Positions 14,542 to 55,305 of a stretch of 64,000 nt of DNA are shown piece after piece. Positions within the stretch are counted from its first letter, which is position 1; every line of letters starts with the position of its first letter. The stretch comes from Clostridiaceae bacterium. GTDB lineage: Bacteria; Bacillota; Clostridia; Oscillospirales; Acutalibacteraceae. The stretch covers positions 8,746 to 72,745 of the forward strand of contig JAEEWM010000005.1 of the NCBI GenBank assembly GCA_016287385.1, in the 5' to 3' direction. The notes beneath the pieces are model-generated. The model saw only the letters and a list, made by a program, of their open reading frames with translations, ran no database searches and had not been told where the DNA came from. The position numbers and the translations under genes are program-made.

Positions 14542-15783
14542 ATGCGATATGTTAAACTGATTTTCAGGATATTGTTTTTTACGGCGCTGCTGTTCTGCGT
14601 TACGGTGTTTACCGCTGTTATAGTTATGAACAAAACGGTCAGCCGCGAGTACAAAATAAACCGCGGCGACACCTTCAGAATCGAGTCATCCATACCGGTA
14701 ACGGTGGATTTCAAAGGGGCGAAAGCCTCGATAGAGGATTACTGTAACGTAGGCGACGTATTTGACGTGGATTTGAAAATTCTCGGTGTAATACCGTTCA
14801 GTAAGGCGAGCGTCACGGTGGTGGATGAAACCTACGTTTCTGTGCTCGGTACGCCGTTCGGTATGAAAATATACACCGACGGTCTGCTTGTGATATCTAC
14901 CGGCAGGGTCGAAACGAAATCCGGCGCGGTAAACCCCGCCGAAGACGCGGGCGTTAAGGTCGGCGATTATATAAAGAGCGTAAACGGCGAGCGGATAAAC
15001 TGTAACGAGGACCTGGTGACCGCGGTCATAGAAAGCGGCGGCGAAACACTCAAACTCGAAATAACGCGGGAGGGTAAAGCGCGTGAAGTGTCGGTAACTC
15101 CCGCGCTTGATAAGGACGATAACCTCTACCGTATAGGAGTGTGGGTGCGCGACAGCTCCGCGGGCGTCGGAACGCTCACCTTTTACAGCCCGGTAAGCGA
15201 CGTGGTGTGCGGACTCGGTCACGGTATATGCGACCGTGACACGGGCAAACTGCTCGTGCCCGAGCGCGGCGAGCTGGTCGGTGCGGAAATAATATCGGTC
15301 ATAAAGGGCAACGCGGGTGAACCGGGCGAGCTTAAAGGCAGATTCACGGGGGAGAGAATATCCGATATGGCTCTTAATTCGGATAACGGCGTTTACGGTA
15401 ATCCTTATGAACCGCTTGATACCTCGAAGCTCACGAAAGTCGCGTATAAACAGGATATCAAAAACGGCGACGCGCAGATACTTTGTACCGTTTCGGGCGG
15501 TAAGCCGAAGCTTTACTCCTGCCGCGTTCAGAAGCGCGCGGGCGCTTACGATTATGAAACGCAAAACATGATAGTCACCGTGACCGATAAGGAGCTTATC
15601 GCCGCCACGGGCGGAATAATACAGGGTATGTCGGGCAGTCCGGTACTTCAAAACGGCGAGCTTATAGGCGCCGTGACCCACGTTTTTGTCGACGACCCCA
15701 AAAGGGGCTACGCCGTCTTTGCCGAAAATATGCTCGACACCGCGGCGGGCGTCGCGAAAAGACGCCTTAAAAAGGCGTCCTGA
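14542..15783 (+). CDS. spoIVB: stage IV sporulation protein B, SpoIVB peptidase (S55)
   Basis: N-terminal TM, PDZ region, and the S55 catalytic region GGIIQGMSGSPV. Confidence 0.9.
   Translation: MRYVKLIFRILFFTALLFCVTVFTAVIVMNKTVSREYKINRGDTFRIESSIPVTVDFKGAKASIEDYCNVGDVFDVDLKILGVIPFSKASVTVVDETYVSVLGTPFGMKIYTDGLLVISTGRVETKSGAVNPAEDAGVKVGDYIKSVNGERINCNEDLVTAVIESGGETLKLEITREGKAREVSVTPALDKDDNLYRIGVWVRDSSAGVGTLTFYSPVSDVVCGLGHGICDRDTGKLLVPERGELVGAEIISVIKGNAGEPGELKGRFTGERISDMALNSDNGVYGNPYEPLDTSKLTKVAYKQDIKNGDAQILCTVSGGKPKLYSCRVQKRAGAYDYETQNMIVTVTDKELIAATGGIIQGMSGSPVLQNGELIGAVTHVFVDDPKRGYAVFAENMLDTAAGVAKRRLKKAS
15759..15779. repeat. left copy of the 21-bp direct duplication flanking element copy A
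   Basis: AAGACGCCTTAAAAAGGCGTC, identical to 16085-16105. It is itself a hairpin and lies inside the last codons of spoIVB. Confidence 0.95.
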
Positions 15784-16084
15784 GCGTGTCGAAAAAGTCG
15801 ACACGCTCTCGGACGGGAATTCCGTTCGCCGAAAATTGAAAATTTTCGGACTGCACTCCACTCCCGCCAATACCACCCACGCCCCTTGAAAATCGCCTTT
15901 TCGTGTTTTTTGCTTATCAGAAGCAATTATTCAAGGAACGGAAATGATTTGTTTTTTCGTTTACCGCAATCATGAAAATGCGATTTTCGCCTATAAGGTG
16001 TTTTTCCGCCGCGCATGTCACCGGAAAAACAAAATGCGCAGCTCACGCCGCGCGGATCTCAACAACAGGTTTTCAGGCATACTG
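15780..16084 (+). mobile_element. structured ~305-bp non-coding repeat element, copy A
   Basis: Aligns along nearly its whole length with the reverse complement of 25124-25425. It is a chain of hairpins with no ORF conserved between copies, and is bounded by a 21-bp direct duplication. Confidence 0.7.
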
Positions 16085-16105
16085 AAGACGCCTTAAAAAG
16101 GCGTC
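16085..16105. repeat. right copy of the 21-bp direct duplication (ghost spoIVB 3' end)
   Basis: Same 21-mer. Read in the spoIVB frame it continues TCT TAA, reproducing the ...KKAS-stop ending. Confidence 0.95.
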
Positions 16106-16148
16106 TTAAACGTGCGCCCGGATTTTTGCGAAATACAGCTTTTTGCCC

Positions 16149-16177
16149 TTTACAAACACGGCGTTTCGTGGTATATT
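16149..16177 (+). promoter_or_regulatory. sigma-A type promoter of the beta-helix gene
   Basis: TTTACA, 17 nt, TATATT, with TGg immediately upstream of the -10. Confidence 0.55.
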
Positions 16178-25094: not shown

Positions 25095-25123
25095 CATCCG
25101 GCAGGATCACCCTGCCGGATATT
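25095..25123. repeat. left copy of the 29-bp direct duplication flanking element copy B
   Basis: CATCCGGCAGGATCACCCTGCCGGATATT, identical to 25426-25454. Contains the hairpin ATCCGGCAGG/CCTGCCGGAT. Confidence 0.95.
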
Positions 25124-25425
25124 GCTGTTAAAAGCCCGTTTTCAACTATTTGCGCAGCGTGAGCTGCGCATTTTGTTTTTCCGGTGACATGTGCGGCGGA
25201 AAAACACCTTATGAGCGAAAACTGCCTTTTTATGATTACGGTAAACAGAAAAACGGAATAATCTATGCTTCTTTAATAATTGCTTCTGATAAGCAAAAAA
25301 TACGAAAAGGCAGTTTTCAAGGGGCGTGGGTGGTATTGGCGGGAGTGGAGTGCAGTCCGAAAATTTTCATAATTTTCGGCGAACGGAATTCCCGTCCAAG
25401 AGCGTGGCGGCATTTTCGACACGCG
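25124..25425 (-). mobile_element. structured ~302-bp non-coding repeat element, copy B (inverted relative to copy A)
   Basis: Its reverse complement aligns with 15780-16084. On the plus strand it begins with the terminator-like TGCGCAGC-gtga-GCTGCGCA plus TTTTGTTTTT (25151-25180). Confidence 0.7.
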
Positions 25426-25454
25426 CATCCGGCAGGATCACCCTGCCGGATATT
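25426..25454. repeat. right copy of the 29-bp direct duplication
   Basis: Identical 29-mer, 331 bp from the left copy. Confidence 0.95.
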
Positions 25455-25495
25455 TCTATACCCCTTTGTCATAAAATTATGACGGAGGGGTTTTT

Positions 25496-32969: not shown

Positions 32970-33053
32970 GCGGGTGTGGCGGAATTGGCAGACGCGCCAG
33001 ACTTAGGATCTGGTGTCACCGACATGCAGGTTCGATCCCTGTCACCCGCACCA
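32970..33053 (+). tRNA. tRNA-Leu(TAG): tRNA-Leu (anticodon TAG)
   Basis: Acceptor GCGGGTG/CACCCGC, anticodon arm CCAGA-CTTAGGA-TCTGG, long variable arm, T-arm GGTTCGATCC, encoded CCA. Confidence 0.9.
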
Positions 33054-33460: not shown

Positions 33461-33536
33461 TGGTGACCCGGACGAGATTCGAACTCGTGTTACCGCCGTG
33501 AAAGGGCGGTGTCTTAGGCCTCTTGACCACCGGGCC
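33461..33536 (-). tRNA. tRNA-Glu(TTC): tRNA-Glu (anticodon TTC)
   Basis: Minus strand reads GGCCCGGTGGTCAAGAGGCCTAAGACACCGCCCTTTCACGGCGGTAACACGAGTTCGAATCTCGTCCGGGTCACCA. Cloverleaf is intact and CCA is encoded. Confidence 0.9.
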
Positions 33537-33538
33537 GG

Positions 33539-33615
33539 TGGTGGCTGTAATTGGATTCGAACCAATGACACTCCGGGTATGAACCGAATGCTCTAGCCAA
33601 CTGAGCTATACAGCC
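33539..33615 (-). tRNA. tRNA-Met(CAT): tRNA-Met, elongator type (anticodon CAT; Ile2-lysidine not excluded)
   Basis: Minus strand reads GGCTGTATAGCTCAGTTGGCTAGAGCATTCGGTTCATACCCGGAGTGTCATTGGTTCGAATCCAATTACAGCCACCA. G1-C72 pair and no GGG/CCC anticodon stem, so it is not an initiator. Confidence 0.85.
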
Positions 33616-53727: not shown

Positions 53728-54441
53728 ATGAAAAAGAAATTAGCAGTTCTGCTTGCTTTGTTGCTCGCATTTGTTATGGTGTTTATGGCCGGCTGCGGCG
53801 ATGACGATGACAGCGGCAGCAGCAAGAAAAAGTCAAAGGGCAATGATGATATCAGCGACGTTGACGACAGCGATATAGAGCTTGAGGATATCATTGAAGG
53901 CGAATGGACCGCTGAATTTGATCTTTCAAAATTCATCGCGGCGAAACTGAAGGAAGATGACGAAGCCGCCGAGATGCTCGAGTATTTCGATTTTGACGGC
54001 GTGAAGATGAATATGATATTCGAGTTTGACGACGGCGAAGTCAACATATCCATTGATAAGGATTCACTTACAGAAAAGTTCGCCGAAATTATGAAGAACG
54101 GACTTAAAAAGTATTTTGACGCTCACGCGGATGAGCTCGGCGGGTCGCTTGACGATATTCTTGAACAAAGCGGTATGAGCCTTGACGATCTTATCGATTC
54201 CATGATGGGTGAAGTGGATCTTTTTGCGGAGCTTGACGATATCGAGCGGGACGGCTACTATGAAGTCGATGACGATTTGATCTATCTCGCGGATGACGAG
54301 GACGAACTCGGCGATGAAGAGGACTATATCAAGTGCACCGTACAGGGCAAGAAAAAGATCAAGATAGTCGAATGGGTTGACGACGGTGACGAAATTAAAA
54401 AGCTCTCCGATTTCCTGCCTGTTATAATGAAGAAAAACTGA
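53728..54441 (+). CDS. acidic lipoprotein, function unknown (paralog of 54613-55305)
   Basis: Lipobox FMAGC, very Asp/Glu rich. Shares G.W....D.S, FEF..DG and the C-terminal LP.I.KK with the next gene. Confidence 0.7.
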   Translation: MKKKLAVLLALLLAFVMVFMAGCGDDDDSGSSKKKSKGNDDISDVDDSDIELEDIIEGEWTAEFDLSKFIAAKLKEDDEAAEMLEYFDFDGVKMNMIFEFDDGEVNISIDKDSLTEKFAEIMKNGLKKYFDAHADELGGSLDDILEQSGMSLDDLIDSMMGEVDLFAELDDIERDGYYEVDDDLIYLADDEDELGDEEDYIKCTVQGKKKIKIVEWVDDGDEIKKLSDFLPVIMKKN

Positions 54442-54579: not shown

Positions 54580-54612
54580 ATTCCTTGATAAATGCTGATC
54601 CGGAGGTATAAA

Positions 54613-55305
54613 ATGCTTAAAAGGTTTTTGCCGTTTTTCGCGGTTGTCGCCGCCCTTGCCGTTCTGGCCGGCTGCGGTTCTGTCAATACTTCCTCAAAAT
54701 CGAAAACCGAGGCTCCCGAAAAAGAGATAACGGCACAGGAAATCATAGTCGGCTCCTGGGAAGGCGTGCTCGACGTTTCGTACCTTGAAGAAAAGATTTT
54801 TGAAAATGAAAAAGAGCTTACGGGGTATTTTACTCCCGGAAGCTTTGAGCTTCCCGTGGTGTTTGAATTCTCCGCGGACGGCGGTTATGCCGTTTCGGTA
54901 AAGACGGAGGAAACCGATGCGCGAATCGCCGAGTTGTCCGAAAAGCTGAAAGCTGCTTTGAAACTTTATTTTACCGATGCGTTTTCGCTTGAAAACTCCG
55001 GCGAAGCTCTCGATAAATTTCTTAAAGAGCAAAGAATATCGATAGACGAGGCGGCGCAGGATATAATAACCAAAAACGCCTTGAAAGGGACGCTTTACGC
55101 CGTTCAGTACGCGGGCAGATATCTGCCGGAGGGTGATAAATGCTTTTTCGGCGAGGACGACGCGCAGGTCGCCGCGCGCGAAAGGTATACGGCTTTTGAA
55201 ATCAAAAGCGAAACCGAAATGAGCATCGTGGAAATTGCCGTGCCGGACGATAAGGAAATGCAGCTGCTTAAAAAAGCGCTGCCGATAACAATTAAAAAGC
55301 GATAA
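54613..55305 (+). CDS. lipoprotein, function unknown (paralog of 53728-54441)
   Basis: GGAGG then ATG 54613. Lipobox VLAGC and the same architecture as the preceding gene. Confidence 0.7.
   Translation: MLKRFLPFFAVVAALAVLAGCGSVNTSSKSKTEAPEKEITAQEIIVGSWEGVLDVSYLEEKIFENEKELTGYFTPGSFELPVVFEFSADGGYAVSVKTEETDARIAELSEKLKAALKLYFTDAFSLENSGEALDKFLKEQRISIDEAAQDIITKNALKGTLYAVQYAGRYLPEGDKCFFGEDDAQVAARERYTAFEIKSETEMSIVEIAVPDDKEMQLLKKALPITIKKR

Follow-up and report, generated by a model that had tools for sequence, protein, structure and literature searches.

A gene-less mobile element lies between two copies of a hairpin behind spoIVB in a Clostridia genome

Results

The insert behind spoIVB

We describe a short insert at the end of the gene spoIVB in a stretch of 64,000 nucleotides from a Clostridiaceae bacterium of the lineage Acutalibacteraceae (contig JAEEWM010000005.1, positions 8,746 to 72,745, forward strand). 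This whole stretch is called the window, and coordinates refer to it unless a locus label (L001 and so on) is given. An earlier sequence-only reading had proposed a structured insertion here, flanked by a duplication of its target. The open reading frame (ORF) upstream of the insert can be taken as SpoIVB because it contains PDZ and Peptidase_S55 domains, and thousands of its homologues bear the name SpoIVB peptidase. The features at this locus are as follows.

14542-15783, + strand: spoIVB, 413 aa, with domain matches to PDZ and Peptidase_S55
15759-15781, + strand: left copy of the target duplication; 15759-15779 exact (21 nt), the 23-nt palindrome having T to C at 15780
15782-16084, + strand: element copy A, long form, 303 bp, running from GAGCGTGTCGA to CATACTG
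16085-16107, + strand: right-hand copy of the duplicated target; ancestral 3' end of spoIVB (...GCG TCT TAA) and complete 23-nt palindrome

The 21-mer AAGACGCCTTAAAAAGGCGTC is found on the + strand at 15759-15779 and again at 16085-16105, with 0 mismatches between the two; there is no third exact copy in the window, and 100 shuffles gave 0 matches. The left copy contains the final seven codons of spoIVB, and the TGA stop at 15781-15783 spans the junction between target and element. The gene terminates GCG TCC TGA, and in the same frame the downstream 21-mer reads on as GCG TCT TAA, a resemblance from which the sequence-only reading had inferred that the downstream copy looks like the original gene end. 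That reading had also described the target as a hairpin, and indeed the downstream copy belongs to the complete 23-nt palindrome AAGACGCCTT-AAA-AAGGCGTCTT. The duplication at copy A is best read as this whole palindrome, with a single T to C change at 15780, which means that the present TGA consists of the last T of the duplication and the first GA of the element. The insertion first proposed therefore stands, with its boundaries refined from a 305-bp insert and a 21-bp duplication to 303 bp (15782-16084) and 23 nt.

The simplest reading of the gene end is a history in three parts. The target would have been the 23-nt palindrome that overlapped the final codons and the TAA stop of spoIVB, and this palindrome would have been duplicated; a later T to C change at 15780 in the left copy, synonymous (TCT to TCC), would have followed; and the TGA at 15781-15783, built across the junction, would now serve as the stop. 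The SpoIVB protein was left unaltered by the insertion, with its new TGA stop supplied by the junction.

A second copy in the window

When the copy A region was compared to the window by BLAST, one further copy was seen at 25427-25152 on the minus strand, with 89% identity over 276 nt. Globally aligned over their full 303 bp each, copies A and B are 85% identical.

25095-25123, minus strand: copy of the target duplication adjoining a DUF624 gene stop; read on the + strand, it is a terminator hairpin, ATCCGGCAGG-atcac-CCTGCCGGAT
25124-25426, minus strand: element copy B (303 bp, long form), with both neighbouring genes on the opposite strand
25427-25454, minus strand: second copy of the target duplication, upstream of a PRC-barrel (ylmC-like) gene

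The hairpin duplicated on both sides of copy B, AATATCCGGCAGGGTGATCCTGCCGGATG (28-29 nt), differs from that at copy A, and on the + strand it forms a terminator-like stem-loop 3 nt past the DUF624 gene stop. As a different repeat surrounds each copy, the flanking repeat is a property of the locus and no part of the element. We also see that the element lacks coding capacity: the sole ORF of copy A (50 aa, 15944-16096) is broken by indels in copy B, in agreement with the earlier statement that no ORF is conserved between the two, and loop lengths vary out of frame.

A dispersed family with constant ends

Further copies were sought by exact-word scans of genomes, metagenomes and viral contigs, using the conserved core of the element. 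Outside the window this gave 24 copies, two of them in metagenome-assembled genomes (MAGs), namely L001 in an Acutalibacteraceae MAG and L002 in a Clostridia MAG of buffalo-reticulum origin. The other 22 lie in metagenome contigs, and the single assembly QZLN01 accounts for 11 of them. The core-word scan had returned 24 metagenome loci, and the remaining two (L008 and L031) were rejected as chance 20-mer matches inside coding DNA. No element match was found in plasmids or phages by BLAST, nor any exact-word match to the core or left end in viral contigs. A nhmmer profile of the element finds only the two copies in the window.

Most copies are 229-231 bp long (the short form). The 303-bp long form occurs in three distinct copies, these being the two window copies and L009, and consists of about 75 extra nt within one hairpin; L003-L005 are other assemblies of the copy A locus and also carry the long form. 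Across the copies that were aligned with their flanks the element ends are constant (GAGAGTGTCGAC...CGACAGGCTG). The copies are dispersed in unrelated gene contexts, with different flanking genes from locus to locus. One metagenome contig, L007, ends within the element, and two others, L039 and L040, end 15-26 nt past the DUF624 stop; contig breaks in or beside a multi-copy repeat are to be expected, and they limit the assembly of these genomes. The family is spread in uncultured Clostridia, probably among Acutalibacteraceae-like Oscillospirales of gut, rumen or digester samples.

One shortened copy, L022:1409-1604, has lost hairpin H3 (listed below) through an internal deletion of 34 nt, and retains its flanking AT-rich palindromic repeat, AAACAAATTT(T/A)AAATTTG. 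A divergent relative, L002:5030-5290 (minus strand), has a different first hairpin and different ends.

Empty sites and a deletion allele

Orthologous sites with a single hairpin and without the element were identified for both window copies, and the nhmmer profile gives zero matches in these loci. Site A is empty in two relatives, L032 and L035, whose SpoIVB proteins are 84% and 85% identical, respectively. Both keep the gene order of histidine kinase, HtrA-like protease, spoIVB and a 452/465-aa protein, and in both just 84 nt follow spoIVB, which ends ...CTTAAAAACGCTTCTTAAAT and ...CTGAAAAAGGCGTCTTAAAGGT, that is, with TCT TAA. This indicates that the downstream copy in the window is the ancestral gene end, as the sequence-only reading had suspected. 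In the window, a promoter-like box with a TG extension (TTTACA-17-TATATT, 16149-16177, + strand) precedes the gene for a 452-aa beta-helix protein. The same box of the next gene follows spoIVB in L032 and L035, and its conservation in these empty-site relatives shows that the insertion left the downstream promoter intact. Site B is empty in a relative with an 82% identical DUF624 protein (L036-L038, including GCA_017554125.1), where 77 nt with a single terminator hairpin stand in place of the 404 nt of the window.

A conspecific contig, L006, which matches the window with 99.3% identity over 5 kb and shows no difference in the encoded SpoIVB protein, lacks 328 bp at this site. We rejected it as a virgin site. 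It reads ...GGCGTCCTGAGCG joined directly to CGCCCGG, and so retains the junction-specific TCC TGA together with the first 5 nt of the element (TCC TGA GCG), whereas the outgroups carry TCT TAA; for this reason L006 is a secondary deletion. Lost with the element are the right hairpin copy and the 9 nt (TTAAACGTG) past the right 21-mer, or 7 nt past the 23-nt palindrome. The spoIVB site is thus polymorphic in the natural population. In a further strain variant, L003, the element is 96.4% identical, compared to 99.4% for spoIVB and 99.0% for the downstream kilobase.

Overall, the further copies, their own duplications and the empty sites at both window loci demonstrate that the element is mobile, as had been proposed. 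The sequence-only reading had named two outcomes that would speak against it, a lack of empty sites and of other copies with duplications of their own, or a 21-mer internal to the element in every copy, and neither was seen.

Target duplications follow a palindrome

Among the 17 complete copies, 13 have a clear duplication of 21-33 bp, exact or nearly so, that is specific to the locus and abuts both constant ends of the element. The lengths are as follows.

Window copy A 21/23 bp; window copy B 28-29 bp; L009 27 bp; L012 31 bp; L014 26 bp
L016 32 bp; L017 25 bp; L018 27 bp; L019 22 bp; L020 29 bp
L023 24 bp; L028 33 bp; L029 21 bp

L022 is a 14th complete copy with a duplication, in this case degenerate and AT-rich, and L010 is truncated by the end of its locus and yet consistent with a duplication. 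The flanking repeat differs at every locus while the ends of the element stay constant, so the repeat is external to the element, and the remark of the sequence-only reading that the duplication is much longer than usual extends to the whole family.

All 13 clear duplications are palindromic, and their sequences are unrelated between loci. In 8 of the 13 the duplication opens and closes with bases that pair with each other, giving an exact foot-to-foot palindrome, and the other 5 are off by 1-4 nt. In most cases the duplicated sequence consists of a terminator stem-loop and a small number of T, and A and T extensions of the sort seen in intrinsic terminators form part of the palindromes. As a rule, a T run is found behind the right hairpin copy alone, the left copy keeping just 1-5 T. 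A co-oriented ORF ends 30-60 nt upstream of the element in 13 of 17 copies (once 193 nt, and with overlap of the element start at copy A). The four others, namely window copy B, L011, L016 and L028, sit in the terminator of a gene that runs in the opposite direction to the element. In short, the target is chosen by its shape and not by its sequence, being a palindrome, and in most cases one that forms an intrinsic terminator's stem-loop shortly after a gene; the whole palindrome is duplicated, and the stagger follows the length of the stem.

Conserved hairpins inside the element

The sequence-only reading had described the insert as a chain of hairpins. The four hairpins it named are all present, and are conserved with compensatory changes. 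The internal features of copy A are listed here.

15782-15808, + strand: hairpin H1, terminal, GAGCGTGTCGA-aaaag-TCGACACGCTC, which holds the left terminal repeat; helix 1, with 5 pairs changed on both sides
15829-15849, + strand: hairpin H3, CCGAAAATT-gaa-AATTTTCGG; helix 4
15850-15887, + strand: C-rich conserved core, ACTGCACTCCACTCCCGCCAATACCACCCACGCCCCTT
15888-15988, + strand: hairpin H4, GAAAATCGC...GCGATTTTC, which carries the extra ~75 nt of the long form; helix 5
16000-16030, + strand: hairpin H5, GTTTTTCCG-13 nt-CGGAAAAAC; helix 6
16036-16053, minus strand: hairpin H6, GCGCAGC-tcac-GCCGCGC, followed on the minus strand by a T run

On the minus strand, H6 looks like a terminator that faces into the element from the right. 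Within the core, CCGCCAA is able to pair with TCGGACGG at 15809-15816, a stretch that reads TTGGCGG in most copies. The core is conserved past the 20-mer search word, although its invariance is partly forced, as copies were retrieved with exact core words.

The element forms five or six hairpins, and 98% of helix cells are paired across the copies, compared to just 42-53% in slid controls. We count 13 base pairs that have changed on both sides with pairing kept, a number reached in 0 of 500 shuffles, and the folding energy is much lower than shuffled sequence gives (z = -6.8 and -7.4). These data show that the hairpins are real constraints. From the divergence of L003, in which the element falls to 96.4% identity beside flanks of at least 99.0%, it follows that the element copy as a whole is under no strong constraint.

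No signal within the copies points to a read strand. The helices that both strands share in the prediction contain as many G-U as A-C cells (3 vs 3), and the antisense strand folds more stably (-96 vs -83 kcal/mol). A promoter scan found no promoter signal within the element. Rfam 15 gave only chance matches for the insert region, searched at E values up to 10, and for three short-form loci. On the whole window at gathering scores, Rfam returned nothing besides three tRNA genes, located at 32970-33050 (+), 33464-33536 (-) and 33542-33615 (-).

Search for a mobilising enzyme

We looked for an enzyme in the window, near the other copies and in collections of mobile DNA. Of the 59 window ORFs of at least 110 aa, 50 were compared to Pfam, and as the sequence-only reading had stated, no transposase, integrase or reverse transcriptase was found among them; only housekeeping families were matched. 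Genes of this kind in the window include scpAB, a two-component system, glycogen genes, EF-G, nusA-infB, dnaK-dnaJ-grpE and RNase Y. No cas1 gene was seen in these 50 ORFs, nor a CRISPR array in the Rfam scan of the window. Two neighbouring window ORFs at 53728-54441 and 54592-55305 (+ strand), each exactly 237 aa, are without a Pfam match.

Discussion

A probable MITE-like transposon, proposed to be joined at the feet of a palindrome

On balance the insert is probably a copy of a non-autonomous DNA transposon, resembling the miniature transposable elements with inverted repeats (MITEs), that was joined at the two feet of its target palindrome. By their operational definition it qualifies as a MITE, being small, gene-less and multi-copy, with duplications specific to each locus and with empty sites; the exceptions are that its terminal repeats are weak and that no parent insertion sequence (IS) was found. 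We propose that a transposase acting in trans would attach the element, through both of its 3' ends, to the target at the 5' feet of the palindrome, one end on each strand, the palindrome probably being extruded as a cruciform. The best candidate would be an enzyme like those of the hairpin-targeting IS1182/IS1272 group. Gap repair would then copy the whole palindrome and leave the element between two identical hairpins, with the consequence that the length of the duplication (21-33 bp) would be set by the size of the hairpin and not by the enzyme.

The closest precedent is given by IS1272 and TnSha1, members of the IS1182 family from staphylococci, which insert in either orientation into hairpins, many of them confirmed terminators downstream of genes (PMC4923244, PMC5678879); some members of the family are said to target palindromes. 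As with the present element, the targets are hairpins and terminators chosen by structure and not by sequence, the comparison being one of targets and not of element ends. The outcome is opposite, in that IS1272 and TnSha1 remove the stem-loop wholly or in part and leave no duplication (PMC4923244), whereas the element described here duplicates its palindrome. Duplication of a whole stem-loop by joining at the 5' feet was drawn by Wan et al. (2017) as 'pathway b' of their Fig. 13, as a proposed possibility for IS1272 (PMC5678879), and the joining step that we propose is this pathway. The two also differ in size and content, as IS1272 and TnSha1 are 1.9-3 kb long and carry a transposase, compared to 230-303 bp without genes for the element, and no IS1182-type transposase was found near the copies among the families listed.

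Bacterial MITEs such as RUP, Correia, Chunjie and MITEPye1 are small, gene-less, multi-copy and intergenic, carry inverted repeats at their ends, duplicate their targets, form stable stem-loops and are often co-transcribed with adjacent genes (PMC10969869, PMC11578231). The element resembles them in size, lack of genes, copy number, intergenic position, target duplications and stem-loop folding. Their known duplications are short and fixed (2-10 bp, with 4 bp for MITEPye1), in contrast to the 21-33 bp found here, which are variable and equal to a palindrome, and the terminal repeats of the element are weak. The 2024 review of prokaryotic MITEs (PMC10969869) describes no duplication of a terminator palindrome; an earlier description may exist among the long direct repeats of the IS1182 family. 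Long duplications as such have parallels. We see a likeness here to the IS1202 group and to IS1634/IS1549, in which the length is enzyme-set or varies regardless of target structure, in contrast to the element, where it follows the palindrome. Background on these insertion sequences puts their duplications at tens of bp. We also considered an IS200/IS605-derived, palindrome-associated element, and rejected it, as such insertions make no duplication and use a specific tetra- or pentanucleotide, whereas the duplications seen here are long and the targets have no common sequence.

Several observations weigh against a MITE-like transposon, the opposite outcome in IS1272 and TnSha1 among them. The terminal inverted repeat is weak: GAGAGTGTCGAC and CAGCCTGTCGAT match in 8-9 of 12 positions, with TGTCGA as the common core. 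No autonomous partner with matching ends was found in the window or in about 200 kb of loci by an end-motif search, and no partner with a match to the element or its left end was found in the plasmid, phage and viral-contig collections. Near the metagenome copies, 61 large ORFs matched 56 PHROG families, and among the 25 of these that were listed there was no transposase. The covarying internal hairpins go beyond what a plain MITE requires. The 13:4 bias towards sense orientation relative to the upstream gene (two-sided binomial p ~0.05) also counts on this side, since a perfectly symmetric cruciform target predicts none; the bias may come from the asymmetric T tract or from selection. The divergent relative at L002 is flanked by a non-palindromic 18-nt direct repeat, AGTGTTTTTTCTT(T/G)ACTT, which suggests that a long stagger is possible without a hairpin target. 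The right copy of that repeat overlaps a promoter-like site, TTGACT-17-TAAAAT. Lastly, three complete copies lack matching flanks: L011:8258-8485, which abuts a convergent gene; L025:1705-1935, which is bordered by two different hairpins; and L030:9195-9423, with ~170 bp of other sequence behind it. These may have arisen by deletion, by recombination between copies, or by a neighbouring or nested insertion.

The family supplies over a dozen naturally occurring cases, accompanied by empty sites, of a transposition product previously drawn only as a hypothetical pathway, in which a whole stem-loop is duplicated by joining at its feet. Terminators are a nearly harmless landing place, as the gene end is kept (with even the stop replaced at spoIVB) and the terminator is rebuilt downstream. 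For annotation, twin hairpins around ~230 bp in Clostridia MAGs mark an insertion and not a regulatory design, and they cause contig breaks. The enzyme, if found, could be a tool or model for DNA integration directed by shape.

A possible mobile gene for a structured RNA

The conserved hairpins raise the question of whether the element should be seen primarily as a mobile gene encoding a structured RNA, a state of affairs that can coexist with transposition as DNA. Transcription from upstream would pass the left hairpin, cover the element and halt at the intact terminator on the right; read-through of the left hairpin would be allowed because that copy keeps merely 1-5 T. The transcript, which would have five or six helices and an unpaired C-rich segment, could act as a small RNA, as a module of the 3' untranslated region, or as a cofactor in the mobility of the element itself. 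The 13 compensatory pairs, the low folding energy relative to shuffled sequence, the sense orientation of 13 of 17 copies, the restriction of the full T run to the right hairpin copy and the conservation of the core outside the search word are all consistent with such a gene. Set against these are the lack of an Rfam family and of a promoter signal in the element, the equal G-U and A-C counts, by which the read strand, if any, is not indicated, and the better fold of the antisense strand. Covariation is equally expected of DNA hairpins, four copies (window copy B among them) lie antisense to the preceding gene, and in the conspecific strain the element has diverged by 3.6% compared to 0.6-1.0% for its flanks. 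The invariance of the core is also partly an artefact of the search with exact core words. Weighing these points, we regard an RNA gene as a tentative possibility only.

A broader proposal joins the two ideas, in that an integrase or transposase would read the shape of a terminator cruciform, with a stagger set by the stem, and the conserved, covarying interior would encode an RNA, made only when transcription passes the disabled left terminator, that would be needed for the mobility of the element or would benefit the host. We think this combination rather unlikely. If true, it would make the family a new class of structure-guided element that parasitises terminators, and not a decayed IS.

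Improbable alternatives: Cas1-type integration, group II introns and resident loci

An insert between two copies of a 21-33-bp palindrome is also the geometry expected if a Cas1-type integrase, either casposase-like or an off-target Cas1-Cas2, had inserted the element, attacking a palindromic repeat at its two ends, on opposite strands, and so duplicating it. The duplications of casposons have a fixed length of 14-15 bp, unlike those seen here, which vary with hairpin size, and Cas1-Cas2 measures substrates of ~33 bp, compared to 230-300 bp for the element. CRISPR spacer acquisition and casposon integration do leave a like product, with new DNA between two copies of a formerly single, often palindromic sequence of ~20-35 bp. 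Casposon integration is reported to recapitulate protospacer integration (PMC5137440). The likeness to our element is one of geometry only, as the Cas1 systems differ in their fixed duplication length, their substrate size and their targets. The Pfam and Rfam scans of the window showed neither cas1 nor a CRISPR array. A casposon or Cas1 insert was accordingly rejected, given the variable duplication of 21-33 bp and the absence of a Cas protein among the 50 window ORFs, and we judge a Cas1 origin improbable.

Bacterial group II introns of class C home behind the stem-loops of intrinsic terminators, into the T tract and with sense orientation preferred, and the element shares this attraction to terminator stem-loops, the T tract and the sense preference. 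A relic of a retroelement, or an insert that took the route of these introns, would thus account for an insertion point in the T tract, immediately after a terminator stem, and for the sense orientation of most copies. Such introns possess a ribozyme and usually a reverse transcriptase, and their homing leaves no duplicated target, which is contradicted here by the duplication that each intact copy shows. With Rfam (to E 10) and with Pfam on the window ORFs we see no ribozyme, intron or reverse transcriptase signal; at 230 bp the element is too small for a group II ribozyme, and antisense copies exist. A class C group II intron was therefore rejected, and a retroelement relic or route of this kind seems very improbable.

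That the insert might be a resident, non-mobile small-RNA or regulatory locus between two terminators, or the product of an integrase with att-site repeats, is suggested by repeats that are hairpins of the transcript-ending kind and by the direct repeats that typically flank integrated elements, and it can be dismissed, as it is refuted by two empty sites and one deletion allele, by more than 20 copies in unrelated gene contexts, by repeats that differ per locus and so give no common att core, and by the absence of an integrase in the 50 window ORFs.

Other observations near the copies

Two contigs of the assembly QZLN01 have a second short repeat in common, CTCTTTGTCAATAGTTGGGGTAAAGAG(T/A)TAAAATGAAAATTTGA, found at L030:9530-9600 and in the right flank of the L029 copy. 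It resembles a promoter with its leader and is unrelated to the element.

Beside window copy B, a 14-bp stem at 25460-25491 (+ strand; ACCCCTTTGTCATAaaatTATGACGGAGGGGT and then TTTTATG) sequesters the ribosome-binding site GGAGGGG immediately ahead of the PRC-barrel (ylmC-like) gene start. The 82% relative (L036) has an equivalent stem, and the stem may represent translational or attenuation control.

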